A stretch of DNA of 64,000 nt from Botryllus schlosseri (Eukaryota), in the NCBI GenBank assembly GCA_051294905.1, contig CM119373.1:3970001-4034000 (forward strand). The letters run 5' to 3'. The notes under the pieces are model-generated. The model was not told the origin of the DNA and did not search any database. It worked only from the letters and a program-made list of their open reading frames with translations. Shown here piece after piece: positions 14,913 through 61,627 of this stretch (position 1 is its first letter; the number at the start of each line of letters is the position of its first letter). The position numbers and the translations under genes were made by a program.

Positions 14913-16429
14913 CAGAGTTGGATCAATTGTAATTTGTAATTGTAATTGAGTGTAATTAATTACATTTTTCAATGTAATTGTAATGTAATTGTAATTGAAG
15001 CATTTTTATTTTGTGTAATTGTAATTGTAATTGTAATTTGAAAAAAATTTTGCTCAATTACAATTTCAATTACATTAAATTGCTATTGAGACCTGACAAG
15101 CACAACATAAAATAATTGACTTATAATGCATTCTCTTTAAATGTCGACAAGGAATTTGGTGGATCCATTCGCGGAAGCCCTTGACTTGGCCCTTGCGGGC
15201 GAAGTTTTCTTAGGCCCTTTTCATACCGGATTTACGAAACTCTTTCGGGAACAAGTTCCGAAACAGGCGATGTTCACATAGAGAAAAAATTACCGAAACA
15301 GTTCCGGGAAAAGGGCGCGTTCATACCTTTTTAGAGTTACCGCGAACTTATGTTCATACAGGTCGTTTTTTCGGTAAATTCGCGGGAAATTATGGCCAGT
15401 ATGAACGCGATTCTCCGTAAGTGTTGATAGTTACGAAACCATGTCTGTGGGGTGTTCCAGTTGTAATATGCTTGTGGAAAACAATGTGGGAGAGGCATAT
15501 ACGTGAGATGCGGAGAAGTTGGCTCCAACTTTTAGCTATGGGATGTTGCGGATATGCCTTCTCGAAGTGTATGGGGCTCTATACTCAATATCTGTATCAG
15601 CAATAGAGCCCGAGCATGTTCCTGGCTTGTATATTATCAACCGAAGCTGAGAGCAGAAACTGAAAGCCAGCAAAGAGGATAGAGTCCTGGAATGAAAAGA
15701 ACCACCGAGGCGATCACATCTGCGTACGAGGTACGACAAAGTCAGTTTATCTTTCTGATTGCTGTATAATGGTTTGGGTAAATCTAATCTTATGTACACT
15801 GTACAGAGAAACCAGGGAAATCGAGAAATTCGTGAGAGAAACATTTGGTATACTCTGCGACGAGCTTCGAGACCATAACGAAAAGCAGCAAGCAAATTAC
15901 ACGAACTCAATTTCTCTTGCTTGCTGAGTAGCTGTCGCTCTTTGGAGGCTAGCCAATGAAGCCAATCGTTTATAGATCCAGGTAAACATCAGATGTATTT
16001 TAAGAAGGCAACTGTCACAAGTTGATTTTAATAAAAATTGCTGGTGCCTATAGTAGGGCTAGCCACAACGATTCGAGTACTCGAATCTGAATCGGGTATT
16101 AACTTTATTGATTCGAGGCGAGTAGTAAAATACTACTTTTCGAGTAGGCTACTGAAATTATACTGAAATTTGATTTACTAACGAGAATTATACCGTAGTT
16201 TTGATAAACTTTTCGGTACTAGTGAAATAAGTACCCGGAGATTAATACGGCAATAGTTGTTGCATCAGAAAGTGGGTGTGTTATAGGATTGGAAGTGTTG
16301 CACATATACATTGAATTAAGGGTGGAAGAATCACTAGGTCTAGTAAGGAACAAGTGAAAAAAACCACCCTGCCATATGAATAGCACGGGATCGAATGGGA
16401 GAGAATCGTAGAGTTATGAGTTGTCGAGA

Positions 16430-17290
16430 AAAACGACGTTAGCCCCGCACATGGCGGTAGGGATCTGATAGTCCACACATGTTGTGCTGTTTGCCTACGC
16501 ATATCTACGCAGGCCGTCAAAGAAGAACATACAATGTACTGCGCTTGGTCCCGTCAGGGGCAGTACACAAATGTCACACGAATAAACACCACAAGCATTT
16601 CCGATGAGACACCTGAACAAAATAGACCAAAACGTCAATATTCGAGCCACAAGCGGTGCTATTGTAGCGATCATGGTTCCAGCCGCGGTTCCATCATCTG
16701 GACCGCTCAGTTCTGGTAGAATAAAATCATCCCAAATTAATACCCCGGTTCTGACCGAGCTACGTAGAATGTCAAGTCCAGTATTAAAAGCGCGGGTGCG
16801 CAATACGTTCGAAACTGAGCCCTATACGCAACCAATCCGTGTAATCAATCGTCTCGTAACAACAACTCAACACCATGACGAAGTGCCTGACACAATACAA
16901 GTGGCCAGAAAAATCGAAACGAACAACTACGTCACAAGCAAGAAACACTTCAGCACCAGGGCGGACTATCATACCCGAGATCAAGGTCGGAAGGTAAGTA
17001 CCAAATTAACCAGATTCATTTCGTCAGGGGATGGCCAGAATGTTCCAACAACATTGGGCCGAAACGACGTGACGGAGAGCTGGACGCCAACTGCGAACAT
17101 AATATTTGCGACGATTAGATCAGGGACCAAATAATAATAATAATACCATTCGCAACGACCACAGCACATAACATAGTGCTGAGAATATCGAGTTGGTCCA
17201 AGTACTGCAAAAACAGTACTAGAAAATATATTAGGGGTGTTACTCGTCGTAATAACCAGTAAACGTAAATAACAGCTATTGCTTTGCAGG
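16430..17290 (+). pseudogene. Frameshifted ORF, possibly an envelope/fusion glycoprotein remnant
   Basis: NVT and NTT sequons and RPKR (16624-16635) in one frame, directly followed in an adjacent frame by hydrophobic GAIVAIMVPAAV (ORF 16604-17134). ILGVLLVVITSKRK near 17230. Purine tract and TG follow at 17357-17373. Confidence 0.35.
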
Positions 17291-20200
17291 ACAAATTAAA
17301 ATCGTCAATAATAAAGACGAAATAATTGAACTAATGAATTAATAATTGTATTTCTTGAAGGTGGGGGAGATTGTTGGTGTTAATTTTATGTCTGTCTACC
17401 GTCTGAGCGATATTATTTTCAACTATGGAAGCTTTGAAACCTCCATTTGCCACATCGCAACATATTAAGCATTCAGTACAAAGCTACGCAATATGCACGT
17501 TATTGGAATGGCATATCTATGAAGACGTGTGTGTTCACACCACAGTCTGACGATCACTTTTGGTCAAAGGTGAACGCACACAGTGGCAATGTGCACTTTT
17601 GAATCCAAATTGAAATTAGCTGACATTATAATGTAGAATTGCGTGATCTAACAAACCGCAAAGTTACGGAAAACACTAGCTTTGAATGCTCACGGAAAAT
17701 ATATCTGTTGCAGCGGACTTTGCTTGACGAATATGCTAATAAATAGAAAAATCTTGAAAGGCCCGCTGAACTAATAGTCGTTAATTTAATTGCCCAAGTG
17801 ACTAAGAAGTAACCCCACCAATGTCTACCATACTGGTCCCCCAAACATTCGGTAACTTACTGCTTTATCAGTAACTCGTGAATTCTAACTATTGGCTAGC
17901 GAGTGAATAGTTGTGGCCAAAAAGTATTAACAGCAATTCTAAATTGTTATCATGGTCGGTGTTGTAAGCTGCATGAATGCAGGTGGTTATGCGAGCATAC
18001 CGCATCGCCATTTGCATTAGATATTTCGGAACCAGTGGGTAGGTTTTTGTGTCGGGTGAGTTGATTTTCCAACACTTCTGTCAATTTGGTTTTTACAACT
18101 ACTGCTGTCTAACGACACGAAGTGAATACCGCTTGTTTCGCGGCTTTGGTTTAGTATAAGTAAATTGCATTACACAATGCGCTACATCGTGCATTCGAGT
18201 ACACAAATAAGAGTGGTAATTCTGACATATGTCAGCAACAAAACAGTATGTACATAGCACCAGTCACGACTGCGCATAAGATCAATAATTGAATTAAAGT
18301 ACCGATTTCCACAAAAATTACCGGAAATCTCTTGTGCGGGGCAGGCAGTTATGAATAGGTAGTCTGTTGAAAGGCCATAAAGTAGTATAGCTCAAAATAG
18401 TAGAATGCGAACTATCAACAACTTACCCTTTGCAGTTTAGGCAAAAAAGTACATGGTTTTACAATAACAATAACTAGAATTAATATGCGTGGTGTCGACC
18501 ATATTTTGAATTTGAACTGTGCAGATTCCACACACATTGTAAATGTATTATGTACTATAGCAACATTTGCGCCTGTCACGAGACAAAGATACATTTTGGA
18601 ATAGCTGAATAGAGGGGTAGTTGCGCTTGGCATGGATTGTCGGGGTTGTGTGACGGCGGATTAGTGCGGGCGTGCGGTTGCGTCGCGCATAGTGGGTTCT
18701 GTCGCGTTGAAGTTTTGCGGCCGTGGAAAGATTTAATGTTCACCAAAATCTATTGAAGTCTAAATATAGATTTATCTTCGAATATTGGAACGGATAAATA
18801 ACAACACCATTAGCCTACTTAATTAGTCTACCTTGGTAATTGATGTTGTATTATGGTGCTCGACAGAAGGGGCTTTGTACCTAAATGTTACGTGGCAAGG
18901 AAGGGTTCAGTCGCCTAGCATTCCGTGGGTGATTACCGCTGTCGAGCCCACCGGTTTGTTGCTCGCTGTCTTTCGATTGGCGATGGTGGCGTGGATAGAG
19001 ATACCCAAGTCCTAACCTCGTTACGACCCTTTGAGAAGTTACTGAACCTCGTGACAGATTCTGCGGACAACTTGCCCCAAACAGGAGTGTTTTCCGCTAA
19101 ATTGTAGAACTTGGATTGACTAATAATGTGTGAAAGGACGATATTGTGAGTCAAAATCATACACATATGATGATAACTACACTATATACACGAAAAACCA
19201 CGTTTTGAACGAAGTAGGTTTTAGTAGTTTCGGGCGCTAGGGAGTTAACAGTGACTGTTACAAGTATAACATCGGGTTTTTAAAAATGGAGAAGTTTTTT
19301 TCTGATTTCGGCCCTGGTTAAGTCTGTGGAAAGTAAATTTAATTCGCGCGAACTGGCCGAAGATTGCGGCTTGCGTAACAAGCACAAATGCGAATTGCAG
19401 AATAAGCAAAAAAATGTGAATTGCGTAATAAGTAAAATTAAGAATTACATAACTAGCAAAACTACGAATTGCATAACAAGAAAAAAAATAATTGATGTAA
19501 CTAAGGAAGTTGCGGATTGGGTAACAGAGCCAAGTGCTGTTTATGTAATGCGTCAATATGCGAATTTGGAATCAAATTGCGAAACTTTTGCAAAATAATT
19601 TTGCAGAAGGCGGTGGGAATTGCAATGTTGTAATGGCGTAATGACGCGCAGGAAACTATTAACTATAGCGAAATGGTACGATCTTGCTTAATTGATGGTT
19701 TAATCACTCCATAGGACGCCTTATAGGGGCAAAAAATTTGCTTGATGAATGTCCGGATTTGCGTCAGATCCTAAATTGAGGAAGTAATATACTGCTTATA
19801 GTGTCGAATCGGGATGCATGAGCGTTAATGTTTTTCCGCCCAAAACTGAATATAACTCGAAGGATAAAGCCAGAAAATTCAGTTGACTTTATACAGAGCT
19901 CTACGCAGAGTTGACTCTACACAGAGTAGAAAGTTGGCAGATATTGAAAAGAATTAGACTGAGAGAGATGACAAGTTTGACAAATTTTTATAGAACAATA
20001 GCACTGGGACATTCAATGGAGTGTGAAGGGTAAATTTTAGACGCAATGACAGAGTCTCAAACGGTTCATTTATAGATAACTGACTTTTGCATGATAGTTA
20101 GCCTATTTATATACGATCCCAAACGTATGGTGTGCCAAAATAACAAACCTTAATATACTTTGGTCACAATAGTACAAACTGTAAATCTGATTTTATCGCA

Positions 20201-20313
20201 TAATAACTGAAGCAGTCAAACCAAATGTTACTAAAAGCAGAGAGTCAATATAGCTGTGATACTTAGGCCTATATCTGACATGTTCGCAGATTAAACTCAA
20301 GCATATACGGTTA

Positions 20314-20502
20314 TAAAAGTAAGCTCACTTTTCTATACTGAGGGGAGAGAAACTAGTACAAGCTATACATTTATAACCGTAATACGATATTTAACTACTG
20401 AGTATAAATAAAAGTAAGCTCACTTTTCTATACTGAGGGGAGAGAAACTATAGTACAAGCTATACATTTATAACCGTAATATGATATTTAACTACTGAGT
20501 AT
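20314..20502. repeat. Direct tandem duplication of about 95 bp
   Basis: taaaagtaagctcacttttctatactgaggggagagaaacta...actgagtat occurs twice. Confidence 0.9.
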
Positions 20503-23500
20503 TCACCCGCTTTCTGACATTTTTCCTCTACAAGATAAATTCTGGCTACTACAAAATTCAGTACTCCGTTTGACGCGGACGCTAATACCATTGTTGATAT
20601 GAATTAAAATGAATCTTCTGAAATGCAATGCAGTAGAATTTAATGACAAATATAACGCAAAGAGCATATCACTATAGAGAGTACGTCCTTGAAATCTATC
20701 TTTATCACGTGACCAACAATGCAAAAGACATTGCATTGATTTTTAGTAGCATGTATACGCATGTGAGCAATAGTTTTGAACAATAAAATTCTAGAAGAAC
20801 AAGCTAATATCACGAAGTTTGGAAACTCATATGGAATATGGTCTGACTCTTGCTTCACCTGACTTATTGTCAGAAGTTGACAATCTTTCGTAAAGCAAGC
20901 TGCACCAATTATTGCATTCATTCTGCGTTGCTGAAGTATAAATGCTTGTGTCTTGCGGTTGGGATGATTGAGATTGCATCAGATAGTATAATATACTGAT
21001 ATAAGCATAAAATATACCACGCAATAAAATTTCGGCCCGCCAAACACTCGCTCACTCATAATTTTGCCTGTGTCTATTAAAGTACTGCCAATCCCTGCTA
21101 AAGACGTTTGCAAATACAATCATTTGCGGCACATAATGACAGTAGGTCTGGAATTTTATGATTTATGGTATCAGCCTGCTGCCGACACCTTTTGCTATTA
21201 TAGCTGTTCCTTACATATAAACTGAAAATGGCATCTTCGCCGTATGATTTTGGCATCTGATTCCAATATCCTTTTGGGCATTGCTTGCAATGGCATAATA
21301 TGACGCATTGCAGCGTATCGGTTGGAATCGCCACACTGGGGGATTCGATTTAGCCTGTGGCAAACTACTGGGTTCTATGCTAGGTTTATAGTTTTATAGG
21401 ACAGATGCCATGTCACCATGCAGTCGCAAGTGATCTCAAGCATCACGACTGTTACTAAGATTAATGCGTACATTGCGGAAATAAAATGAATACGTTAATC
21501 CGTGATACTTATATTCTTCGGCATTACCGGTCATCGCAATGACTTGTGATTAGGGCTGGTCCATATCAAGTATGTGAGTGATTCGATTCGGAATGGAGTA
21601 TATATCAGGCTTCTGGTATAATCTGTGCATGTTCCCGCAAATAAGTTCATGATTATAACACACCGGACACTCAAACTTTGGCACACTGATATTAAAGGTC
21701 AATTGGTTTTTTTCACTTAGTCTAAAGTTCTAAGACATTAGCTGTGCTTTTGCGTACAGCTTGCTTCGTCGTGTCCTAATTTAGGCATTTTGGCACAATA
21801 ATTCAACGCGAAGTATTTGCGACAACGAGGTACGAGCCGCATAGACAACTCCCAGGGGTGTCAAACTCATATTACGTTGCGGGCCGGATAATTGTTGAAC
21901 AATAACGACTTTGCGCAAGACGCCCTATCTAGAAAAAGGACTTGAAAGTTAGGAATGCGCTAGTCATATGTATGTGACGATTCCTACATCGAGGCGCAAC
22001 TATTCTAGTTTGTGTACGTTGAAATTTGATGAGCTACGAATTTATTGATCCGCTTTAATGTGTGAAAGCTACGACTATCAAAGTCGTACCGTTCTCAAGC
22101 CTCCCTTATGTGCCAAGATGCTAACATAAAAATAATACGGTGGACTGTTCACAATTCAATAGCGTGGAAACGCCGGTGTGAGTTCGTGCCTTTCCAAAAC
22201 GAGCCGCATTGTCACTGACTTTCAAATGCATAAATCCGCGCTTCATGGATTGTAGCTATACAAAGTAAAAGGTCGTAAATTTAAGCTCTCAACTATAGGC
22301 ACTGCAAATCTTATATTTCAGAGAATGCCTACACTGCCCCTCCAAATTGTTAAGGTAAGGAATTATAGTAACCGAAAAAATAGAGGTGACTTCTGTAGTC
22401 ATGAGGCTGCCCATATGAGCCATTAGTAAGAAGAATTGCCGTTGCGTAAGCAACAGATATAATCACCCTAAATAACTCTCAATAGAATTAAAAACAAAAA
22501 TTCTTATATACAATAGAAAAATACACACATCAGTTTTTGCGAAATTGATGTGTCGAATATTGAGTCCCAGGGTTCACGCTTTCGTTTCATGAGATCGATT
22601 GCGTCAACGCTAAATTAGCAGAACGTGTTCGAACTTTATAATTGCCGATACTCACTATCGTGTTGAGTTAACAAAAATGCCGCCATTTTGTATTTCGAAT
22701 TTACGAATGGGTTGATGAATGAACAGTCGAATATGCTTTGTAGATTTAGCCGTTGTGTTGATAGCACTTTGTGCTTATCTGGAATTGTCGTATGCATGTT
22801 AGTAGTTAGCTATACCATCAGGTTGCTTTACCGAAAATGGCGCCACCATTTTTCCATGTATGCGAACTTTTGCAGTAAACTGAAGTATATGTAATATATG
22901 TGTGTATGCATATCCATGCCATGTATGGTGCCCACATGAATTGTACGTTCACTTGTATTATCCAATGACTACCAATGCAGACATCATGAATGTGTCCTCT
23001 AGTGTTGGCTATTTCTGGCTCTACCAATGTAAAGCCACCAGCAGTCCAGCACTCTTGAAACACAGCCCAAAACGAAGCTTCCAGTATCAGACTACATCCA
23101 CAAAACAGTATATTGACGATTAATTGCGGGAGGTTCTAAAGTCTTTAGGCATTGAAGGGTGACGTTCGCATGTACCCCTGGAAGCTATTGACCTCATAAT
23201 GATTGGATCGGCTGCTTGCCATAGTTGCAAAGTATACAGAAATAAAGCAGTGCAATAAAAAGAGATTGACTGCTAGCCGAAGTTGCAAAGTATACAGAAA
23301 TGGAGAAGCCAAATGAAATGTGCTGGAATAGCTCCATGAAGTCGATGAACTAAAGATGAAAAGAGCCAAGAGTATAGAGATATTGCATTCGGAATCTCTA
23401 CCCACGACCAACCCTCAACAAACGCCGCCTTCTGTTAGAATGCCCGATCCCCGAATCGACACGAAAGTATTTGATGATGTAAAGTACTCAACAAGGGGTC

Positions 23501-24120
23501 GGTTTCTGGACTGATTTCGGTTCAATACCTGCAGCTGGAAGACTGGAAAACTCTTATAATGCATGAGTCTGCAAGTTGGTCAACTTGAACTCTGAGTGTA
23601 TTTTTTGTAACAACTATTGGCATGTTTCTTGTATATTGCATATGCTTGTGTGTCGAGGCAGGAAAGGCCTTCACATTTATATGTGTAAACTAACCTTGGA
23701 GTATTGAAAAGTTATCAATCATGCATGACATATTTATAGGCCTAGCTTTTACTCGTATTCTGATAGACCCGTGCGGGACGATATTTATAGAAGCGCCCTA
23801 TTTTTGTGTCCATAATTGGTTGATAATTATTGGAGTATTTGGTTGTATTAAAGGTTTTAGATTACTTGTAAAGGGTTAGATTAGAGTTTTGGACCTAATG
23901 GTCATTGGCTGTTTGGAAACAAGACAATATTACAACTACGGAATACTTCAATCAACATTTACGACTTTGAAAAATCTCAAGTCAACATCTACAGATCTAC
24001 GAACGTCGTCAGTACTGCACAAGAGAGCAAAGAGTGTCAACTTTGTCCTACGAAGTATCCCGAACAAGTGTGGACTACTCGCATAACAGTCGTTGTGGAG
24101 CTGCACTATAAAAACAAAAT

Positions 24121-24138
24121 TGGTGGCCAGTACGGGGA
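24121..24138 (+). promoter_or_regulatory. Primer binding site complementary to tRNA-Ile(AAU)
   Basis: tggtggccagtacgggga is the reverse complement of the metazoan tRNA-Ile(AAU) 3' end UCCCCGUACUGGCCACCA including CCA. It lies about 300 bp upstream of the gag-like ORF. Confidence 0.9.
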
Positions 24139-24169
24139 ATACTTCCGGTGTTCAAACATTGACCGATCG

Positions 24170-24436
24170 ATGCTTTCAAAGACGACCATCGTAAAACTTG
24201 TACTTGTTGTATCCATTCTTTCATCGTCCGTATCACTCCTGATTATATTAGCAGCAATTTATCTGCACGTGTCGCCTGGAGCGTTTTCTAATCTGTTGAA
24301 CGTATTTTTGGGATCAAATAGCAGCGAACCCACTGCTTACGTCAAATCCATGAATACGCCGCAAGGACCTACAATCTTTTTCAACGTATCCTCACCTGAT
24401 CTAATATTTGTCAACAGTACTTCCTCTAGTCAATAG
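24170..24436 (+). CDS. 88-aa pre-gag ORF, predicted single-pass or signal-anchored glycoprotein
   Basis: First in-frame ATG after the PBS gives MLSKTT, then hydrophobic IVKLVLVVSILSSSVSLLIILAAIYLHV, then sequons NSS, NVS and NST. Stops 8 nt before the gag ATG. Confidence 0.5.
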   Translation: MLSKTTIVKLVLVVSILSSSVSLLIILAAIYLHVSPGAFSNLLNVFLGSNSSEPTAYVKSMNTPQGPTIFFNVSSPDLIFVNSTSSSQ

Positions 24437-24444
24437 AGAGTACT

Positions 24445-26289
24445 ATGCGAAGAATATTGAAAGCATTTAAAAGGAAAAAGTCGTCAGAAGCGAGAAATGA
24501 ACTTAAACAGGGCATTACCCTGCTTAAAGCAACACAAAAACGCCATGAAGACGTTCGGAGACAAGAAAGACAACTTGCTAAAGATGTGGCTGAACAAACG
24601 GAACTATTAAAAGAGGTGAAGACAGCTTTACCCGAAACTATGAAGGGTCTGGAGAAGGCAAAGAAAGAGGTTCGAAAAGCTCAAGCGGACCTCAAAGCTG
24701 TTTGTGATGCCACAACAAAAGTTAGCGGGAAGGTCTTCACCGACGTGCTGAATGACATTCTTACGTCAGAGTTTGAGCTCGGAAAGTCGCATGCACAGGC
24801 TACGCGAGATAGAATCCAACCTCCCGTTTTGACAGTATCTCCAGATGCACCAGAATATGATCCTCCGGCTTACGTTCCTCTCGCCGAGCTGCCGTCTGGT
24901 AACGTAAAACAAGGGCCAACGATGATGGTTCGCAAAGGCTTAGATTGTCATACTGTGACGGCCGTGTACCCTACGTTGCCTAGTTCTGAGCCGACCTCGT
25001 TGTCGGACTCCCGCGTGGGGACGACACCATGTTTTCATGTGGGAAGTGGTGCACGCGCCAATCAGAAAAAGCAAAACCCCGTGGAAATGCCAAGCCTCAT
25101 CAGTCTTGGGGGGAGCGAGTCCCCTGATGCATCGAAACCAGAAAAAAGTCCCTTAGATAAGTATATGGGGTACCGAGGATGGCAGAATCGTCGTAATGAG
25201 GAGAAGGATTCTCGACGACGAGCGGGAAGTGCGGATGGTGAATCTCGACGGGTGACCTTCAGAGAACAGGGTGATACAAGAGAAGATGCGGAAGACTCCG
25301 AGGAAGATGATTTCGATATACAAATGCAAAAATTGGCTCAAGAAATAAAAAAGGTTGAGACGTCTCTTCGACGTTCCGATGATTTGCCGAAGGAAGACGA
25401 ACAGGTATCTCCATCATATTACCCAAATATGCCTCGTTTTACCTCTACTCCCAACGATCGTAGCAGAAGGCCAGGGCAACAGCAGCTGCACCAATATCCC
25501 GGTGTTACGGTCCCAATGCTCAACGTGCCTGTTAAAATCCAATCAGAAAAAGAAATGCTTCAGCTTATGATGGATCCTGGGGACATGCCACTGCTAAAGT
25601 GGATGGAAAATTCGATGCGAAGAATAAGCCACGGTTCCGGGAATACGGATGTGGATGTTATATTGGCTAATGCGCTGCAAAAGAAATTAAGGGCTGCTGG
25701 CAGACACAAGCATGCTACCCAACTGGGAAATTTTTTTAACACCAATTCGGGGGAAGCAGAATGGGAATCGGTGATGCGATCCCTTTCCTTATCCAATCCC
25801 CAGGGTTTAGTAAATGATGAAAAGATCATTGGGGATTTCCGCAGAAATTATCGCTGGGAGGATGAGCCGCTACCCCTGCTCAATAGCGCTTTGAAGCAAC
25901 TGGAAATAGACATGGATAGTAAAATTAAGAAAAATCCGGACGGTTTACGTCTTTTTCGAAATCTACGACAACGTCTACCAGAAGCACTGAGATTGATGCT
26001 ACGAGGTTGGGAAGAGGACAAAAGATGGCGGGACGTTGCGGAGGAACTACAACTCGTCTGGAACTCCGAGTTTCTGGATGAACAAGAGACGCGCCCTAGG
26101 AACCAGGAAACAAAGGAAGAGCGTGACACAAAGTCATCTTTACCACCTGCACACTCGTCCCGAGGTAATAGCCAAGTGACTTGGGCGGAACCTCAATACC
26201 CTGATCATCCACGTCGATATGATGCTTCATATTGGACGGATGATGAACTGAATCAAGGTATTCGACTCTCGATCGCTTGCGGGAGCTGA
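24445..26289 (+). CDS. gag: Gag-like protein (614 aa) of an LTR retroelement
   Basis: Open ORF between the PBS and the protease. Basic and coiled-coil N-terminus, late-domain-like PDAP/PPAY and YPTL, helical capsid-like C-terminal half, no CCHC knuckle. Confidence 0.75.
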   Translation: MRRILKAFKRKKSSEARNELKQGITLLKATQKRHEDVRRQERQLAKDVAEQTELLKEVKTALPETMKGLEKAKKEVRKAQADLKAVCDATTKVSGKVFTDVLNDILTSEFELGKSHAQATRDRIQPPVLTVSPDAPEYDPPAYVPLAELPSGNVKQGPTMMVRKGLDCHTVTAVYPTLPSSEPTSLSDSRVGTTPCFHVGSGARANQKKQNPVEMPSLISLGGSESPDASKPEKSPLDKYMGYRGWQNRRNEEKDSRRRAGSADGESRRVTFREQGDTREDAEDSEEDDFDIQMQKLAQEIKKVETSLRRSDDLPKEDEQVSPSYYPNMPRFTSTPNDRSRRPGQQQLHQYPGVTVPMLNVPVKIQSEKEMLQLMMDPGDMPLLKWMENSMRRISHGSGNTDVDVILANALQKKLRAAGRHKHATQLGNFFNTNSGEAEWESVMRSLSLSNPQGLVNDEKIIGDFRRNYRWEDEPLPLLNSALKQLEIDMDSKIKKNPDGLRLFRNLRQRLPEALRLMLRGWEEDKRWRDVAEELQLVWNSEFLDEQETRPRNQETKEERDTKSSLPPAHSSRGNSQVTWAEPQYPDHPRRYDASYWTDDELNQGIRLSIACGS

Positions 26290-26417
26290 TTGATCCGGTA
26301 AATCAGCTCCCAGATAATTTATTACCCCAAACACACAAAAACTGTACATAACACTTCTTTACCCTTATTTACATTTCTTGATACGCCGGATGACCCATTA
26401 CAGCCCGATTTACGGAA

Positions 26418-26740
26418 TTGTTCGGAGGCCAATTGTTGTATTTGATTGATACAATAACGGGTTCGAAATTCCTAGCTGACACGGGAAGCATCCCCAATTT
26501 GATAATGAAAAAGGTCGTTATTACTAAATACCCACAAAGCTGGGAGGAACGTCAACCAATAGACATGGAATTGACAGGAATAGGTGGCTCGTCCCAAGTT
26601 GATTCCTTGGTAGAGATTAATTTTGATGGTATGTCCGTTCCATTGAACAAGTACAGCAATTACCAAGCATAGTAATTGGGTTGAAAACACCGTCTAATGC
26701 GATTGAAGAGTTGTCTTTAGTAACTCTACATGATGGGATC
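26418..26740 (+). pseudogene. pro: Retropepsin-type aspartic protease, frameshifted near its C-terminus
   Basis: KFLADTGS active site, LTGIGG flap, and IVIGL (ILG-like motif) in an adjacent frame. Confidence 0.85.
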
Positions 26741-26891
26741 TCATGAGATCAACGGGACGGAACCAAAGTCGGAAGCAGTCCTCGCGACACTGTAACCGAT
26801 GATGGGGTTGATGGAAGCTGCAAATCAAATAAGCGTCGAGCCGGCACGCTAGCCGTCGCCGCTGGCCGTTGCCGCTGGCGCAAGTACCGAG

Positions 26892-27527
26892 ATGGTAATC
26901 ACCACTGGTGCGAACGACGAGTTGAAAATAGCAACTAACGTCACACAGAACCCATGGGAAACTATTGGTGTTGAGACAGGAATGCCTGCTAACACCGTTA
27001 ATGAAGACGTCGAGCGTGGAATCCCCGCTGGCGTAAATAATGACCTGCACGAGAAAACTGGTCCCGAAGGCTCTTGCGGATGCACTTGTCCGGATAACTG
27101 TAAAAATCCGGCCCATAGATGCATGGCGACTGCCACAGCTGACATCGAACGAAGAATGTCCGCTGGCGAAAATAAAGACCTGCACGAGAAAACTGGTCCT
27201 AAATGCTTTCGTGGATGCACTTGTCCGAATAACCTTAATGAATCGGCCCATAGATGCATGACGACAGCCACAGTAATGAGTACTTTCCCAAAAGGTTCAA
27301 ACGAAGCAGCGATTGCCGGTCAACCGGATACACACCCGGTCATGTCCGACAAGGAGTCTGGGGATTTTAGGATGCACGTCTCCCCAGAAAAAGGGTCCCC
27401 GGCGGAAAAGGAGTCCGTCGGCGTGACGGTAGGTGCGGGCACGCACCGACATCAGAGGCCTACATCGAAGGACCTCGCCCTCTCTCCACCAACAACAGAA
27501 CCCCGTTCATCACGAGATTCCCATTAG
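26892..27527 (+). CDS. Unknown 211-aa ORF downstream of the protease with a duplicated Cys/His module
   Basis: DLHEKTGP..(C)GCTCP.N....AHRCM occurs twice as a 132-bp repeat. No RT motifs. Confidence 0.4.
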   Translation: MVITTGANDELKIATNVTQNPWETIGVETGMPANTVNEDVERGIPAGVNNDLHEKTGPEGSCGCTCPDNCKNPAHRCMATATADIERRMSAGENKDLHEKTGPKCFRGCTCPNNLNESAHRCMTTATVMSTFPKGSNEAAIAGQPDTHPVMSDKESGDFRMHVSPEKGSPAEKESVGVTVGAGTHRHQRPTSKDLALSPPTTEPRSSRDSH

Positions 27528-30088
27528 CCAATGGCTGGCCAAGTTACCGCAACAAGGGACCAGTCCAAGCGTTAAGACGGAACTCAAGAGTCTCATCATC
27601 GCCATGATCTTTGTAATGACTCAGTGGATGGATATCATCCCTGGGAAGGAATTTGCGGCGTCATTAGAAAGAAAATGGGGATGCAAATGAGAATTGAAGA
27701 AATCACGTACGTCATGAAAAGGTGCGACAGAGCAATAGTCTCGAAAAATGGATTGGCGGCCGCCCATGGACATACAAAGGGGACGCCTCCTCAATACTGT
27801 AAATATGAAGGTAACGAGATATTGTACCCACATGACGACTGAAAACAATGCAAGACAGATAATGTCAGCAGGCATTGAACGAATGAACAGGAGATTCGTT
27901 CATTTGAGCAAAACGATAACGAAGAGAAGCAAAACAAGGAATGTGGTAATTTGTATGAAAGCAGCCGATATAAGGAATAAAGGGCTCGTGCTGCTGCAAT
28001 CAAACGTACAAGAAATGGTGTTGTGCGAAGGCCCTATACCACCCACGATCATACAAAAGATGTAAAGCTGCTTTTGGCAGAGTGTAAATATGTGATATAA
28101 TAAGGGTGAACGGACAAAAATCCCTTTAATGGGAGCAAACGGACAAAACTGAAACGTCGTAACTAGAAAAAATGCGGAGTCAGCATTTTTCTATCTCGTG
28201 CGGAAAAACGAGAGAACAAGAAGAAAAAAGAATAAGTGATAGAATAAACAAGGAGATTGAATTAAATGATCATGGGGAAACATGATAGATGACGTCAATC
28301 ATTCACACGAGTGAAGCGGGCATATAGTTCACTAGTTCCAACTTTTCCACTGAGTAAGCCTTGAAACCTTGATTGGCCGTGTCGCAACATACGAGATATA
28401 GTACAAAGCTACGAACGTTGCTGGAAATAACACATTTCCGAAGTCATGACCATCCCATATAACACTGTCAAGCAGTGCAATGAAAACGGTATGGTCGAAA
28501 AAAGTATCTTTAACGTGACGGACAATAGGCGTTATGTTCTTTATGGTAGCATAAAAGGTAGCCTACACATTTGAATTTTGGCATGGTACATTGTGTTGTG
28601 ATGTCATCATGATGATAATCGACTCGATGTGTAATAATTGATTCAGAATCGAATCACCCAGGTACTCAATTTTGCCCAGCCCTAGTGCATAGTAATATTT
28701 CTATATTTGTCATGGCGGAATGTCAGCCAGTTTTTGCGTAGCATACCACTGCAAAAAGGTCAGACAAATTTGGTCTTGAATCATTATGTCAGAAAAAGAA
28801 GTCTGAAAGACCAATTGTTCTTGCCAAGTAGGCTACTTTCTGTCTCAAAAGTAAGACCCAAATTGATGGAAAATAGACTTAAACACTGAGCAATCAACAC
28901 AATGTCTTGGTCTCGAGTCATAAAACCATGACTCGAACTCGACGCTCTGCTCGAAGAGTTGAACTCGGATTTGACTCGGTGATAAATTGAAAATGACTCG
29001 ACTTGAATCTAGTCAAAACTATTGAAGTGGGATCGACTTGTGACTTGGTTACAACCCTGCTCACTTGACTGAAATTGCTGAAAATGAGACCAAATTTGTA
29101 TATTTTTTGTAGTGTAGTCAGACATGTACATCAACCTACTTATTTAGTTACTAAAACTATGTAGTTCTAGTTGTGGATTTGAAAAAGTGAATAGTTTCTG
29201 GTTCTAGTTGCGGATATTTTAAAGTGAGTAGTTCTAGATAGCAGATTTTGAAAAGTTCAGGGCCGGCCAACTCGTGGCCCGCGAGTTAATTTCCGAAATT
29301 AGTAGTATTATCAAAAATGGATTGCACAGATTGTGAACTTGCAAGGCCAATCAAAAATTTGATTAGTCTGACCACAGCACTTGAGATGTGATGACTGAAA
29401 TATCAGTTCCGACGCATTGGTAGGTCTATGAGCCAGTCACATTTTGGTAGATCTTCATACACTACAATAAAGCAGAATACTTTGCGATAGATTAATCAAA
29501 AGATTAATCAATTTTCTACACACTTAGCGCAACATCTTGTCACTCGATTTCTTGCTTTTAATATTGTTACCCCTTTGTGAAAATGAAAGAACGCCTAATC
29601 TATCAGATTGAGTCTAACTATATATATATTTGCGACCTCCCGTTTGTGCTCGCAGAAAGACCGTCGACTATGAAACCTAGGCACAAAATGATTGCCTCAT
29701 GTTGGACGAAGCTTTCGATATCGATATGTCCAGGTGCCGAATAGTGCAAACTGAGCCCAGAATATATATACAGAATATACAGCAGGCTTGCAATATAGTC
29801 AAGTGACAATATTATTAATTTATCAACTTCAAAAAATTTTCGTGCTTCGCGCGGCTAGTGGCCGGCAGAATAGTTCGTCAATCGAATGTGGTGATTTGGC
29901 TGAAAAGGTTGGCCACCGCTGTTCTAGTTGCTAGTTTAAAAAATTGAGTAGTTCTAGTTGAAGTTGCGCATTTTGAAATTCCAGTACTTTGTACAAGTCT
30001 GAGTGTTGTGGGTGGATAAAAAATTACCACAGCAACATTTGTACCAAACATGCATTTGCTGCATTCAATTTTTTTCAGGATGACTTCA

Positions 30089-32040: not shown

Positions 32041-32431
32041 TCAGATCACGATACTGCATCGTTACTTCGTCTGGCTAACTAACCAGACCACTGGATATTA
32101 TATAACGTCTTATCTGACAAAGCACGGTTTTGTTTTACTCCTCATCCTAATTCCTACGTCCCTCGATAAAATTATTATTATTTCTTTAATTATATATACT
32201 ATATACGCAAATCCAACACGTGCATATATTATAATACTTTTTCAACGACATACTGCACCCTATCCTTAATCCTAGCCCATAGGAAATTAGGTAAATAACA
32301 TTTTACACTTCCAATTACGTGAGCCATAATTACGAGCATACAAAACACGCTTATATTACGTCACAATGACATCTTATATAGCATACTATGTACATTGTAA
32401 CGCGAAACAATAACTTCATATTGTTAATTTA

Positions 32432-32471
32432 TTCGCTAAAAGCTTTTCGACTAACTCTCATCAGTAGCGAA
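32432..32471 (-). ncRNA. Minimal type I hammerhead ribozyme (inverted copy)
   Basis: Exact reverse complement of 34586-34625. Confidence 0.8.
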
Positions 32472-32644
32472 CGTTAGTGATGGGGTGAATCAAATTCGAA
32501 ATGTAAGAACTATTTTGTCTGTATGACGTAATAATAACAAAAACAAACAACTAGTAGACGGGCTAGATACGGTAGTAACGGTACAAAACAAACGTTAACG
32601 AGTACATATTCGGTTATAAATAACCGAAAACACAACACATAACA

Positions 32645-33493
32645 TTAATGAAGTATTCCAAGAGTGTAGAGGCGTTCCTTCTGGCGACAGAGAATCGGCT
32701 TTCGTAGCTTTATGATCGTAGATTCCAGTACCTTTAAATGAAACAGAGAACGGCCACGAGCAAGTATAGAAAATTGACTGTCATTGTAATGATCAGCACA
32801 TTCTGGATGGGATAAGAGATGCTGTCCAATAGCCGAATTACAAGCAGTAACTTGATCATAATCACGCAGTGTGTCAACAGACTGCGATGAAGGAGTTGGA
32901 GAAACATTATTTATTCTAATTTGCCGTGGGACATGCTGGCGAATTCTTTGCTGCAAGCGCTGAGACGTGCGACCTACATACCGACTGTCACATCGGCACG
33001 TGTATTCATATATTATGTTGCTTTGATTTGTCGCAGGTAGCACATCCTTTTGCGTTGCAGGCATCAGAGATTTCGTCATGAAGATTATCTGAGGTTCTAC
33101 TTGTGAAAAACAATGGCTCACTGACGATTTAATTTGTTTTTCAAACCTGTTGGACACTTTCCCAATCCAAGGAAGATGCAAATAAACAGGACATTTTCTA
33201 GGTCCAAACGGTTTAACTTTTCTGAAATCTTTGAGTTTACGATCTATGGTCATTTTAATGATATGATCAGGATAACCATTTGACTGGAAGATTGACCGAA
33301 TGTTCTCCAATTCAGAATCAAGTTTGACTTTACTACAAATCATCAGAGCCCTGTGTACCAGAGTTCTTATCAAATTTACTTTACGTTTTACTGGACAGAA
33401 AGAATCCCACGAAATGTATTGCCCACTGAATGTAGGCTTACGGTAAACTGATGTAACAAAATTAGCACCCGTCTTTTCCACTACAACATCAAG
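32645..33493 (-). CDS. PLE RT thumb plus GIY-YIG endonuclease, truncated inverted copy
   Basis: VYRKPT, NGYP, IIYEYTCRC..YVGRT..L..R..QH and SAIGQH. Confidence 0.9.
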   Translation of the reverse strand, partial: LDVVVEKTGANFVTSVYRKPTFSGQYISWDSFCPVKRKVNLIRTLVHRALMICSKVKLDSELENIRSIFQSNGYPDHIIKMTIDRKLKDFRKVKPFGPRKCPVYLHLPWIGKVSNRFEKQIKSSVSHCFSQVEPQIIFMTKSLMPATQKDVLPATNQSNIIYEYTCRCDSRYVGRTSQRLQQRIRQHVPRQIRINNVSPTPSSQSVDTLRDYDQVTACNSAIGQHLLSHPECADHYNDSQFSILARGRSLFHLKVLESTIIKLRKPILCRQKERLYTLGILH

Positions 33494-33497
33494 CAAA

Positions 33498-34412
33498 TTG
33501 AATGGTCTTCACCCATCACTGAAATTCACCATGGAAAAAGAGGTCAATAATTCATTAGCATTCCTTGATGTTGTAGTGGAAAAGACGGGTGCTAATTTTG
33601 TTACATCAGTTTACCGTAAGCCTACATTCAGTGGGCAATACATTTCGTGGGATTCTTTCTGTCCAGTAAAACGTAAAGTAAATTTGATAAGAACTCTGGT
33701 ACACAGGGCTCTGATGATTTGTAGTAAAGTCAAACTTGATTCTGAATTGGAGAACATTCGGTCAATCTTCCAGTCAAATGGTTATCCTGATCATATCATT
33801 AAAATGACCATAGATCGTAAACTCAAAGATTTCAGAAAAGTTAAACCGTTTGGACCTAGAAAATGTCCTGTTTATTTGCATCTTCCTTGGATTGGGAAAG
33901 TGTCCAACAGGTTTGAAAAACAAATTAAATCGTCAGTGAGCCATTGTTTTTCACAAGTAGAACCTCAGATAATCTTCATGACGAAATCTCTGATGCCTGC
34001 AACGCAAAAGGATGTGCTACCTGCGACAAATCAAAGCAACATAATATATGAATACACGTGCCGATGTGACAGTCGGTATGTAGGTCGCACGTCTCAGCGC
34101 TTGCAGCAAAGAATTCGCCAGCATGTCCCACGGCAAATTAGAATAAATAATGTTTCTCCAACTCCTTCATCGCAGTCTGTTGACACACTGCGTGATTATG
34201 ATCAAGTTACTGCTTGTAATTCGGCTATTGGACAGCATCTCTTATCCCATCCAGAATGTGCTGATCATTACAATGACAGTCAATTTTCTATACTTGCTCG
34301 TGGCCGTTCTCTGTTTCATTTAAAGGTACTGGAATCTACGATCATAAAGCTACGAAAGCCGATTCTCTGTCGCCAGAAGGAACGCCTCTACACTCTTGGA
34401 ATATTTCATTAA
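33498..34412 (+). CDS. PLE RT C-terminus plus GIY-YIG endonuclease, 5'-truncated
   Basis: LNGLHPSLKFTMEKE..SLAFLDV..VYRKPT followed by the GIY-YIG domain; ORF intact to its stop. Confidence 0.93.
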   Translation: MNGLHPSLKFTMEKEVNNSLAFLDVVVEKTGANFVTSVYRKPTFSGQYISWDSFCPVKRKVNLIRTLVHRALMICSKVKLDSELENIRSIFQSNGYPDHIIKMTIDRKLKDFRKVKPFGPRKCPVYLHLPWIGKVSNRFEKQIKSSVSHCFSQVEPQIIFMTKSLMPATQKDVLPATNQSNIIYEYTCRCDSRYVGRTSQRLQQRIRQHVPRQIRINNVSPTPSSQSVDTLRDYDQVTACNSAIGQHLLSHPECADHYNDSQFSILARGRSLFHLKVLESTIIKLRKPILCRQKERLYTLGIFH

Positions 34413-34585
34413 TGTTATGTGTTGTGTTTTCGGTTATTTATAACCGAATATGTACTCGTTAACGTTTGTTTTGTACCGTTACTACCGTATCTAGCCCGTC
34501 TACTAGTTGTTTGTTTTTGTTATTATTACGTCATACAGACAAAATAGTTCTTACATTTCGAATTTGATTCACCCCATCACTAACG

Positions 34586-34625
34586 TTCGCTACTGATGAG
34601 AGTTAGTCGAAAAGCTTTTAGCGAA
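34586..34625 (+). ncRNA. Minimal type I hammerhead ribozyme in the PLE 3' region
   Basis: Stem I ttcgcta/tagcgaa, core CTGATGA, tiny stem II ga-gttag-tc, GAA, palindromic stem III aagctt, cleavage triplet UUU. Confidence 0.8.
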
Positions 34626-35324
34626 TAAATTAACAATATGAAGTTATTGTTTCGCGTTATTCTGAAGTTCTGTACCACAAATCACTTGTATGTACATTGT
34701 ACGCACATAAACGCATTTATTACTACACAATCTGAACTAGACTTGAATTGTTGTTAAATACGACGCTACGGTTGTCAAGGAGCACGGTTGAATTTATGAT
34801 TATTCAATTACATGTTCAACAGCAGCAATTGTAATTGTAATTGTAATGTAATTGAAGCATGCAAGGAGTAATTGTAATTGTAATTGTAATTTGATATTTT
34901 TAGCATGGAGTAATTGTAATTGTAATGTAATTGAAACATGCATGAAAGTAATTGTAATTGTAATTGTAATTGAACTGAAATAATGTAATTAATCCAACTC
35001 TGGTGAGCAGTAGCGATAACAAAGTCGTCACAGCCAAGAGTAAAGAATTTGGAAATCTCCAGTGACCATGCCACAGCGCCGGCTTCACCTTCAATCGGAG
35101 CGTATCGTCGTTCTGAATCACGTAAGAATCGGGAGCCTGCTAGAGTAATTTGCCAGCCATTGGGGAAGCAATCAGGCGTCGTAGACTCACATTCACAGTA
35201 TTTTTCACGCAGCCAGATACCCGTATTCGACCAGTCGTGATGCAAACAAGTTCTTCGCCTCTGGTCAAATATGCGCACCCAATTTTGTATTGCCCGAATA
35301 ATTTCAGCGTTTGACACTGCGAAC

Positions 35325-37128: not shown

Positions 37129-37879
37129 GTCTACGTGAATGAAGATTTCGGGCTAAGTAAGCTCTTGAACGGTGTCATTATGTCGGTGAGTTTGCCATAA
37201 TGAGAGCCTTGGTTAACAATACCGAACCATGGCCGTATGTCTGACATCTTTTTTGGCCTTGGAAAACAGGCTATTGCTTCCAAATATTTTGGAAGTGGAC
37301 GTACGTCGTCTGATGTGATCTAGAATCCTAAAAATTCAATATGCTTACATGCAAACTGAAGTTTCAAAGGGTTAAGGATGATGCCTTCGCGTTCTATCAG
37401 CTCGGGATAATTAATCATTATCCATCAATGTTCAGACGGACTGTAATCCCATAACACTGTGTCGTCGACGCACTTTGTCGTTCTAGGCATATCAGCGATT
37501 ATTCGATCATAGCGATGAGTGTATCTATCCATCACCACTTGCTATGAAACCGTGTGCGGCACTCGATATCTATATCTGCCAAATTCAGCGATGGACGTGA
37601 GTAAGTGGCGATCATCCTCTCTGACGAGTACCGAATGGTAGCCATTCCAGGCGTCCCTAACGGATCTGAAGGTATCAGGTAGTATGGAACGTGTTTGATG
37701 AAATGGCGGAACGATGTGGTGCGTGTTCCGGGAGCAATGGCGGTTGAGGGATTGGAATTCGATCACTCTGCGAGGACTTCCATTGCTCGATGACACCACG
37801 TTGTCGGTGTATTGCGTTTAATTTTTTCAATGACACCAAGACGCACGTCATCATCCAATTGCTTCTTTACTGCATCACA

Positions 37880-61365: not shown

Positions 61366-61627
61366 GACGAACTCCGTGCAGAAAATGTTCAAGTTATTGA
61401 GCTCACGGAGCCCTGAATCATCGGAACTTGCGATTGATTTTACAAAACCTAGTCACTAACTCCGTGCAGAAAATGTTATCGTTCCTGAGCTCGGGGAGCT
61501 CTGAATCATCGGAAGCTGCGATTGATTTTACAAAACATAGTCACGAACTCCGCGCAGAAAATGTTCATGTTCATGAGCTCACGGAGCCCTGAATCACCGA
61601 AACTTGCGATTTATTGCACAAAACCAA
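61360..61627. repeat. 88-bp tandem array, about 3 units, same unit as 37880-38408
   Basis: ctgaatca(t/c)cg recurs at about 61413, 61501 and 61589. Confidence 0.92.

Follow-up and report, generated by a model that had tools for sequence, protein, structure and literature searches.

The window, a 64,000-nucleotide stretch of the Botryllus schlosseri genome (contig CM119373.1 of assembly GCA_051294905.1, positions 3,970,001 to 4,034,000), contains an element of 12,125 bp (16215-28339) with short inverted ends, the 8-bp target duplication AACTTTTC and no LTRs. Judged by its sequence, it is a deletion derivative, and a defective member, of a family of ~40-kb elements which appear to unite tRNA priming, Gag, protease, RT-RNase H and Env with the integration apparatus of a cut-and-paste DNA transposon. 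Retroviral replication machinery together with DNA-transposon integration, apparently without an integrase, looks like an undescribed combination. No description of a retrovirus-like element paired with a cut-and-paste transposase was found in the literature covered, to which subscription journals and Repbase reports do not belong. Excerpts of PMC5718144 treat mobile elements as combinations of a polymerase, an integrating enzyme and structural proteins and ask whether undescribed combinations exist. The family would provide a living model for the interconversion of integrase-less and integrating reverse-transcribing viruses in an invertebrate chordate close to the vertebrates, and would raise the known size of reverse-transcribed genomes. 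It also raises the questions of how a Merlin transposase acts on circles, which role Tpt1 has in the place of the integrase and whether trans-splicing can serve as a terminal repeat.

Extent of the element and its full-size relatives

The first-pass annotation had described a retrovirus-like element at 24121..28100, bounds which proved too narrow for an element that has inverted ends and an 8-bp duplication at 16215-28339. Its remark that no matching LTR pair is present holds among the repeat families listed for the window, and its proposal of an LTR lineage finds no support in the copies, which show inverted ends and 8-bp duplications, with no LTR pair seen. The ends and the left part of the element comprise the following features.

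16207..16214, no strand: target-site duplication, left copy, 8 bp; present once in a paralogue (L028) of the flanking repeat that lacks the insertion
16215..16237, + strand: left terminal inverted repeat, imperfect, ~23 bp, starting with GG, Merlin type
16215..16581, + strand: left-end region, 72% identity to its counterpart in a 40-kb copy
16928..17292, + strand: decayed accessory-gene remnant (tblastx 40% over 63 aa and 27% over 48 aa, E 2e-14)
28218..28232, + strand: tract rich in purines that precedes the right end, shared with long copies; possible plus-strand primer
28317..28339, + strand: right terminal inverted repeat, ending with CC
28340..28347, no strand: target-site duplication, right copy, 8 bp

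The counterpart of the accessory-gene remnant in copy L022 is a mucin-like membrane protein. In long copies a transposase gene lies next to the left-end region; it is absent from the window copy. A genome search for full-length relatives with pol and LTRs, as had been recommended, recovered pol-bearing copies of ~40 kb, though not LTRs. Their order is left inverted end, Merlin (IS1595-type) transposase, env-like gene and accessory genes (IAP, E2 and a second transposase), followed by spliced leader, R/U5, tRNA-Ile primer-binding site (PBS), small membrane ORF, gag, pol and right inverted end. Nearly all left ends (47 of 48) could be paired with a right end, at a distance of 39-41 kb in 13 of the 47 pairs and of 10-17 kb in 14. 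Perfect 8-bp duplications flank 25 of 26 copies checked, comprising 15/15 short copies with both ends fetched, 10/10 long copies and 0/1 further long copy. One 4.7-kb copy with both ends carries transposase and env but gave no pol match; therefore cut-and-paste movement or simple deletion also happens.

Relatives with 36-51% identity in other data sets have the same gene order without an integrase. They form one clade with a support of 0.994 in a FastTree tree of 180 rows, which holds no named retroviral or caulimovirid references and hence gives no position of the clade among them. A metagenome scan returned eight loci, two of them close relatives and both too short for element ends; a viral contig collection contained no relative of pol or env.

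Leader, primer-binding site and probable footprints of reverse transcription

The region upstream of and including gag is organized as follows.

23657..23728, + strand: motif present in two to three repeats ahead of the spliced leader of related copies; putative U3 enhancer
23829..23851, + strand: DNA copy of the chordate spliced-leader exon, equal to nt 2-24 of 'Chordata 1' (PMC3795323, Table 1)
23852..24120, + strand: R/U5-like region, single, with no second copy in the element
24121..24138, + strand: tRNA-Ile(AAT) primer-binding site, 18 nt, complementary to the 3'-terminal 18 nt of host tRNA-Ile(AAT)
24170..24436, + strand: pre-gag ORF for a membrane protein of 88 aa that bears N-glycosylation sequons, open in 23/23 family loci with the same PBS
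24445..26289, + strand: Gag, 614 aa, with helical N-terminus and capsid-like core
25534..26097, + strand: capsid-like core, dN/dS 0.06-0.10
26142..26154, + strand: junction of a ~1-kb gag deletion (nucleocapsid region), common to short copies

The 18-nt tRNA-Ile PBS reported earlier was borne out: the complementary T-loop/acceptor end of the tRNA occurs ten times in the genome, and the two loci that were retrieved are both genes for tRNA-Ile(AAT). The PBS is exact in 22 of 26 loci, and the 1-3 nt just 3' of it occur as six alleles across 23 loci. In one copy a deletion begins exactly at the 3' end of the PBS, and in another the similarity begins at its 5' end. The spliced-leader copy is the point where many element copies change ancestry; the genome holds 233 such leader copies, of several origins. 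Short and long copies are intermixed in trees of R-U5, of the gag N-terminus and of the capsid, and are separated in the tree of the dead protease segment (segments of 290-740 bp). Ectopic gene conversion could also be the source of such mosaic copies. Taken together, the allelic variation next to the PBS, the deletion that starts at its end, the embedded spliced leader and the mosaics point to reverse transcription. A purine tract of at least 13 nt was not found upstream of the leader region.

Pre-gag ORF and Gag

The annotated pre-gag ORF is a real gene, with a dN/dS of 0.15 in its first 45 codons and a 111-aa homologue in the sister family described below, but it starts at the ATG at 24170 and codes for 88 aa, in place of the 183-codon stop-to-stop frame given earlier. 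The uninterrupted 614-codon Gag ORF was recovered as described (open frame 24430-26289, from the ATG at 24445), as were its late-domain motifs PPAY (24862-24873) and YPTL (24967-24978). The suggestion of an unusual, probably budding-competent lineage is strengthened by the occurrence of PPAY in 17 of 17 Gags, of YP[T/K]L in 15 and of PTAP in six of them, and by the env-like protein in full-length relatives. The window Gag lacks the zinc-knuckle part; Gag of the long copies has ~948 aa and a zf-CCHC domain (E 5e-4).

The model of the capsid core has a pLDDT of 57. Residues 1-92 matched Gag capsid lobes with Z scores of up to 5.8, below 8; the top match was the C-terminal domain of MLV CA (6gza, Z 5.8, rmsd 3.4, 80 aligned residues). 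Gag-derived capsids made up 18 of the best 50 structural matches by manual count, all with Z < 8. Foldseek gave no match of the capsid model in the PDB at E <= 0.001, and the protein atlas no usable one. The modelled likeness of the window core to a Gag capsid is suggestive only.

Protease, spacer and Pol

Downstream of gag, the window copy retains fragments of pol.

26394..26672, + strand: aspartic protease core DTG...GIGG, broken by frameshifts and stops
26700..27550, + strand: PR-RT spacer; 135 bp are tandemly duplicated at 27006-27273
27550..27590, + strand: junction of a ~1.8-kb deletion removing RT and RNase H
27590..28065, + strand: Tpt1/KptA RNA 2'-phosphotransferase remnant at the end of pol, split over frames (PF01885, E 1.4e-8)

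The protease had been regarded as intact. Its DTG...GIGG core is indeed present and served for its identification, as Pfam gave no match to a protease; compared with the long copies, however, the enzyme is not intact because frameshifts and stops flank the core on both sides. The coding-like stretch previously called Cys/His-rich turned out to be the PR-RT spacer with its duplication, followed by the Tpt1/KptA remnant, which also matched PRK00819 in NCBIfam (E 2.6e-9). In line with the absence of RT, RNase H and integrase noted before, none of these families matched in the downstream frames scanned. The internal deletions in gag and in RT-RNase H are both common to the short copies, and the loss of RT and RNase H fits the idea of a non-autonomous satellite.

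Pol of the long copies is encoded in the -1 frame in the order protease-RT-RNase H-Tpt1, with matches to RVT_1, RT_RNaseH and PTS_2-RNA, and the right inverted end follows ~280 bp beyond pol. An rve integrase was not matched in Pol or in the other ORFs scanned, a scan that did not extend to ~19 kb at the centre of the long form, where an integrase could still lie. The dN/dS ratios were 0.04 for RT, 0.04 for RNase H, 0.23 for Tpt1 and 0.70 for the PR-RT spacer; by this measure purifying selection on Gag, RT and RNase H is strong. By similarity, RT-RNase H is of the Ty3/Gypsy type (24-28% identity). The best match of RT to a solved structure was 8r0s, 'Enzymatic polyprotein' (E 1.7e-33), the enzyme of cauliflower mosaic virus, which scored better than Ty3 (4e-28).

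Transposase, Env-like gene and the permuted sister family

Transposase and pol are linked: 56 of 61 pol matches (52-100% identical) have a same-strand PF12762 match at most 60 kb upstream or 2 kb downstream, at a chance expectation of ~0.7%. Long copies have two transposase genes (PF12762, E 2.7e-10 and 9.8e-19; also NF033547), and D-D-E motifs are present; no match for the transposase was obtained among solved structures. Env follows a transposase match within 1 kb in 52 of 54 env matches. The Env-like protein has hydrophobic segments at 3-29, 484-513 and 767-804, RKRR at 480 and 11 sequons, which would agree with the anatomy of class I viral fusion proteins (signal peptide, furin site, fusion peptide, heptad region and C-terminal anchor), whose fold is trimeric. 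Atlas leads for Env were CoV S2, haemagglutinin and paramyxovirus F at 0.86-0.87, under the line of 0.9. A fold identification from a single-sequence Env model was discarded, as its pLDDT of 36 rendered the viral fold search meaningless.

A sister family has the permuted order gag-pol-transposase-env: seven pol matches (76-82%) are followed by a transposase match 561-585 bp past pol and then by env. In the one sister copy read, pol, transposase and env are adjacent with no inverted end in between, and, in agreement with the main family, the leader is preceded by a block made up of the ORF and the second transposase; this upstream second transposase was seen in only two of the seven sister copies. 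Ends of the sister family were not found by the main-family pattern with three mismatches or in the stretches read.

Proposed life cycle and rival explanations

The permuted gene order leads us to infer a circular DNA. Probably, reverse transcription of this retrovirus-like element yields a circle, which a DNA transposase then opens and inserts. Its gene order would then correspond to the retroviral map R-U5-PBS-gag-pol-[integrating enzyme]-env-accessory-U3, opened between pol and transposase. The circular form would be the template for transcription, with the host spliced leader heading the RNA; Gag would package this RNA, and tRNA-Ile would prime reverse transcription into a circle with one LTR-like region, which the Merlin transposase would cleave at the joined inverted ends and then insert. 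A new genome-length RNA would require excision and recircularisation of the inserted copy, or read-through across its ends. The window copy, having retained cis signals and a putatively capsid-forming Gag, would borrow RT, transposase and Env from full-size helpers and could recombine with them on co-packaging.

The circle was not observed, because none of the 15 joints listed (180 more exist) in the comparison of reads with an 8-kb copy connects the right to the left end, and the one long copy without a target duplication speaks against the circle model. Single-cell reads of the sense strand accumulate immediately before the leader, and a few lie near the right end. The leader position was rejected as start site of the element: its 24 bases equal the host spliced leader, and reads with what is presumably the template-switch oligo run into other sequence. 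None of the 20 sequencing runs listed as containing the element is recorded as RNA.

A giant composite Merlin transposon, moved by cut-and-paste only and carrying a captured retroelement as passenger, with no reverse transcription in its present spread, would account for the Merlin-type ends and 8-bp duplications, for the circle junction not seen among the 15 joints listed and for the 4.7-kb copy without pol. It is nevertheless unlikely, as passenger genes would be expected to drift, in contrast to the dN/dS ratios of 0.04-0.10 for RT, RNase H and capsid, and as the linkage of pol and transposase holds down to 52% Pol identity; nor does cut-and-paste account for the cluster of alleles next to the PBS, the deletion that begins there, the embedded leader or the mosaic copies. 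An ordinary truncated Gypsy element, the refuting case named in the first-pass annotation, or a host-kept gag is far less credible still. The Ty3/Gypsy-like RT-RNase H (24-28% identity) and the open window gag are in its favour, but the 3' end with its inverted repeat is present, the short copies have both internal deletions in common, and the full-size relatives have neither an integrase in Pol nor an LTR pair. Retention of gag by the host, considered in the first-pass annotation, is likewise at odds with the 14 dispersed short copies, every one of which is flanked by a target duplication of its own.

The same circle could also arise without excision if an inserted copy yielded two RNAs, one from leader through gag and pol to the right end and one from the left end through transposase and env to U3, which RT would join by two template switches, the second possibly via the 8-nt target duplication. 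This route would dispense with the single 40-kb transcript and the excision, and the read pile-up upstream of the leader, the few reads near the right end (two 3' ends would be expected) and the purine tracts near both ends agree with it. We give it only a small chance, since RT would have to jump between ends that share hardly any direct homology and no junction sequence is among the 15 joints listed. The length cluster at 39-41 kb (13/47) is compatible with excision and with two RNAs alike.

Beyond the transposase-opened circle, we tentatively consider, with some reserve, that the family may represent new enveloped reverse-transcribing viruses of tunicates, up to ~40 kb in size, with Merlin in place of integrase, insertion of the circle at an internal attachment site in the manner of temperate phages, dependence on excision for replication, spliced-leader RNA, anti-apoptotic and ubiquitin genes and defective satellites.

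Comparison with known systems

Ty3/Gypsy elements and retroviruses have two direct LTRs with TG...CA ends and a 4-6-bp duplication. The long copies share with them the order of protease, RT and RNase H and a tRNA PBS after U5; they differ in the inverted GG...CC ends, the 8-bp duplications and a single leader/R-U5 per copy. Caulimoviridae combine a Gag-like capsid with zinc knuckle, an aspartic protease, RT-RNase H, tRNA priming and circular DNA without an integrase; they are plant viruses of ~8 kb, not enveloped, primed by tRNA-Met and not known to have an integrating enzyme of their own. The family resembles them in a putative zinc-knuckle capsid, protease, RT-RNase H, tRNA priming and apparently missing integrase, with a putative circle here, and departs from them in its env-like gene, tRNA-Ile, ~40 kb and transposase. 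DIRS/Ngaro elements, which have RT-RNase H and are thought to insert a circle, replaced the integrase by a tyrosine recombinase; they are not known to carry a protease or a tRNA PBS, and their insertions mostly lack a target duplication. The present family has 8-bp duplications and a DDE transposase, and no recombinase was matched among the ORFs scanned, again with 19 kb of the long form outside the scan.

According to excerpts of the Merlin survey PMC8101967, the IS1595/IS1016-related Merlin transposons have inverted repeats of 24-462 bp starting with 5'-GG, including imperfect and 23-bp cases, and target-site duplications of 8 or 9 bp. The family agrees with Merlin in GG-starting inverted ends, 8-bp duplications and a D-D-E transposase of the DDE_Tnp_IS1595 type, of which the window copy has all but the transposase. 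Unlike the Merlin elements of this survey (PMC8101967), whose text has the term 'reverse transcriptase' 0 times, it reaches ~40 kb and carries two transposase genes, gag, RT, env and a PBS. Merlin transposons spread through DNA alone; the sequence footprints in the present family point to reverse transcription, although no intermediate was observed among the joints listed. Teratorn, the piggyBac-herpesvirus fusion of medaka, similarly has virus-like genes within transposon ends and is moved by a transposase; in the parts of PMC5601938 and PMC10175614 covered, its excision and circular form are proposed, not demonstrated. It is described there as a 180-kb DNA virus with piggyBac/TTAA ends, in contrast to the tRNA-primed gag-pol-env, Merlin ends and 8-bp duplications found here, and the ORFs scanned (19 kb of the long form excepted) gave no match to herpesvirus families.

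Tor of Oikopleura (PMC4402516) and the planarian Burro (PMC6431247), as far as excerpts of these papers describe them, share gag, protease, RT, RNase H and an env-like gene with the present family; they have two LTRs and a retroviral-type integrase, as opposed to a Tpt1-ended Pol, one LTR-like region and a Merlin signature. Counting against the proposed cycle, a 40-kb RNA genome would exceed the retroelement sizes given in the excerpts on Burro (>30 kb; PMC6431247), which is likewise giant and carries BIR and ubiquitin-related domains.

The window copy and its ends

DNA searches over the genome (495 Mb, 219 contigs) placed the features that the first-pass annotation had reported at 24121..28100 within a larger unit, which has the following landmarks in the window.

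16215-28339: element with imperfect ~23-bp inverted repeats at its ends, GG at the start, and AACTTTTC flanking both sides
15209-16214 and 28340 onward: host site, another abundant repeat whose uninterrupted paralogues carry one 8-bp target copy
24121-24138: primer-binding site (PBS) matching the 3' end of host tRNA-Ile(AAT)
24170: ATG of the pre-gag gene, encoding an 88-aa membrane protein

In a paralogue of the flanking repeat that carries no insertion, the octamer occurs once. Perfect 8-bp duplications bordered all 15 short copies for which both ends were retrieved and all ten long copies sampled; one further long copy, C11, had none. Passages of PMC8101967 give such inverted ends starting with GG and 8-bp duplications as the defining features of Merlin transposons. 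Pattern scans at one mismatch yielded 46 left and 50 right ends, and two left ends were added later; 47 of the 48 left ends were paired with a right end. By length, 14 pairs fell at 10-17 kb and 21 at 34-41 kb, one of the latter being a short copy enlarged by a nested insertion, with 13 pairs within 39-41 kb. The element is a discrete unit inserted in the manner of Merlin; it fits the sequence definition of that superfamily, and does not fit the definitions that apply to LTR elements, to Teratorn or to DIRS. Two loci are of composite structure: at G000:C5:18373634-18412484 a ~26-kb sister-family element is nested within a short-type copy, and at G000:C5:10285872-10339541 a long copy runs on into 14 kb of tandemly repeated pol end, with a second right end.

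The tRNA-Ile PBS noticed in the first-pass annotation proved real; the T-loop/acceptor end of this tRNA occurs ten times genome-wide, and both loci fetched were tRNA-Ile(AAT) genes. Gag was likewise upheld as a frame of 614 codons carrying PPAY and YPTL. The protease had been described as intact: its DTG...GIGG core is present 3' of Gag, but is broken by frameshifts and stops. The stretch downstream gave, as claimed, no matches to RT or integrase, and contained a Tpt1/KptA match (PF01885, E 1.4e-8). The pre-gag ORF was open in all 23 loci carrying the tRNA-Ile PBS, with a dN/dS of 0.15 across its first 45 codons. Deletions of ~1 kb in gag, with loss of the knuckle, and of ~1.8 kb, with loss of RT and RNase H, are common to the window copy and other short copies. 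The window copy also lacks transposase and env, and the slippery heptamer found at the gag end of long copies is missing from it. It is a defective, non-autonomous derivative, one of the states the first-pass annotation had envisaged; neither a gag retained by the host nor a 3'-truncated Gypsy element describes it, and an ordinary Gypsy or host gene as the general explanation is very improbable.

The full-size form

A search for full-length relatives, proposed in the first-pass annotation, led to ~40-kb copies with gag, pol, an env-like gene and a transposase. The map below derives from ~21 kb of one 40-kb copy, read piecewise, and from the gag-pol ends of another three copies.

Left part: left end, Merlin/IS1595 transposase, 838-aa env-like gene, paralogue of the env N-terminal part
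Beyond the ~19 kb outside the read pieces: LRR ORF, second transposase, IAP, small ORFs, E2 enzyme
Right part: spliced leader, PBS, pre-gag ORF, ~948-aa Gag with CCHC knuckle, Pol
Pol: -1 frame, with protease, spacer, RT (YIDD), RNase H and Tpt1; right end ~280 bp further on

No integrase is present in the long-copy Pol. Relatives from other data sets (36-51% identity) share this RT-RNase H-Tpt1 ending and likewise have no integrase there; eight of them formed one clade (support 0.994) in a tree of 180 rows that comprised Pol relatives other than named viral references; integrase-bearing Gypsy-type proteins adjoin it. A distant relative, P0093, has an exonuclease/endonuclease/phosphatase domain C-terminal to Tpt1 (PF03372, E 4.7e-7). 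From the chemistry of its family, our guess is that Tpt1 might heal or cap nucleic-acid ends.

Features of the env-like protein include a signal peptide, an RKRR site with a hydrophobic segment after it, an extended helical region and an anchor at the C-terminus; the atlas leads of this protein were class I fusion proteins throughout, each scoring under 0.9. The capsid-like core was predicted with a middling pLDDT of 57. The best matches of residues 1-92 were Gag capsid lobes (MLV 6gza, Z 5.8, rmsd 3.4, 80 aligned; RSV 5.6; PNMA2 5.5), with 18 of 50 rows Gag-derived by our count, and Foldseek returned no match with the core model; the predicted likeness is suggestive only.

Pairwise dN/dS, another check proposed at first pass, was 0.044 for RT, 0.038 for RNase H, 0.23 for Tpt1 and 0.70 for the spacer (four copies), and for the capsid core 0.057 (five long copies) and 0.097 (12 short ones); the element genes are under selection. 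Among Gag late-domain motifs, PPAY was found in 17/17, YP[T/K]L in 15/17 and PTAP in 6/17.

Accessory genes in long copies (L057, L053, L056) encode an IAP (three BIR and a RING), a ubiquitin-conjugating enzyme and an LRR protein, alongside several related 130-200-aa ORFs without family matches. The paralogue of the Env N-terminal part is 28% identical over 137 aa. In a divergent copy (72-75%; L047/L048, G000:C5:1585000-1600000), deletions join gag and part of pol into one 1,033-aa frame, with a membrane-protein ORF 3' of it.

Pairing of pol and transposase

The best 61 of 1,516 candidates from the Pol search, all 52-100% identical to the query, were scored against the 118 strongest of 141 transposase matches. 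A Merlin match on the same strand, no more than 60 kb 5' or 2 kb 3' of the pol match, accompanied 56 of the 61 (chance ~0.7%); since the copies are related, these pairings are not independent events. The link was present in every Pol identity class. The five unpaired matches included one in an 8-kb copy that retains 46 codons of a transposase, one on a short contig and one with a transposase match 80 kb off. With a subset of the transposase matches entered, 52 of 54 env matches lay within 1 kb 3' of a transposase match. Judged from these sequences, the pairing is old and has been maintained.

Joining both ends gives the order leader-R-U5-PBS-gag-pol-transposase-env-accessory-U3; if the ends are so joined, the map is retroviral, and the transposase stands where integrase would. 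The genome contains a sister family arranged in this way: in seven pol matches (76-82% identity), a transposase match lies 561-585 bp past the pol match, followed by env. In the one copy read, pol, transposase and env are contiguous with no inverted end in between, the transposase is 59% identical to the first transposase of the main family, and the block 5' of the leader corresponds to the ORF-plus-second-transposase block of the main family; this block was seen in only two of the seven copies. A search for the ends of the sister family found none. Its PBS (L068:685-702, on G000:C1) differs from that of the main family, and a partial second leader copy lies 3' of the leader.

Signs of reverse transcription and proposed cycle

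In retroviruses, plus-strand transfer is expected to leave errors at the PBS border. Of 26 loci examined (24 distinct copies), 22 had an exact PBS, and the 1-3 bases directly 3' of the PBS had six alleles among 23 loci, with nearby indels rare or lineage-wide. One copy has a deletion beginning exactly at the PBS 3' end; in another, similarity begins at the PBS 5' end. A copy of the 'Chordata 1' spliced-leader exon, as listed in Table 1 of PMC3795323, is located about 290 bp 5' of the PBS. It was found in all 12 loci examined, sister family included, and its position is the breakpoint of many between-copy alignments. For a leader, which is added to RNA, the simplest route into DNA is reverse transcription. 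Leader copies number 233 genome-wide and are of several origins; among 100 listed, many different sequences follow 3', some being sister families of the element. Short and long copies were interspersed in the R-U5, gag N-terminus and capsid trees, and lay apart in that of the dead protease segment. The pattern fits recombination with co-packaged helpers, gene conversion being an alternative source.

The most probable reading, we infer, is that RNA headed by the host leader would be packaged and copied from a tRNA-Ile primer into a circle, which the transposase would open at the joined ends and insert; inserted copies might be excised, or read across their own ends, to restart the cycle. Pure cut-and-paste, with the retroelement genes as passenger, would share the inverted ends and target duplications; set beside the alleles at the PBS border and the constrained RT, it is unlikely. 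We give as little credence to two RNAs joined by RT.

Several observations count against the circular cycle or bear on it. Reads and contigs aligned to an 8-kb copy included empty-site joints of the flanking repeat, and no end-to-end joint was among the 15 joints listed (180 more exist). Purine tracts of at least 13 nt lie near both element ends, and none lies upstream of the leader region. On the sense strand, single-cell RNA reads piled up directly 5' of the leader (349-409 reads at 80 start sites) and were few in other places; reads at the leader that carry the template-switch oligo are most likely host mRNAs. The retroelements described in passages of PMC6431247 are smaller than a 40-kb RNA genome.

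Relation to known systems

In having no integrase in Pol the element resembles caulimoviruses and DIRS, neither of which is known to carry one. Teratorn is, in passages of PMC5601938 and PMC10175614, likewise a virus-like genome served by a DNA transposase, and Tor and Burro, as covered in sections of PMC4402516 and PMC6431247, have gene content like that of the element. No description of the element was found in the literature searched, which lay outside subscription journals and Repbase.

Other repeats in the window

A perfect 1,099-bp inverted repeat with a 64-bp spacer at 32398-34659 contains two frames with weak GIY-YIG matches (E 0.002, below cut-off) and is possibly a Penelope-type inverted duplication. 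G-rich telomere-like repeats of 22-23 bp occur in both orientations at 5834-6486 and 9591-9740. Two arrays of an 88-bp unit, at 37879-38408 and 61360-61637, lie within a longer dispersed repeat.
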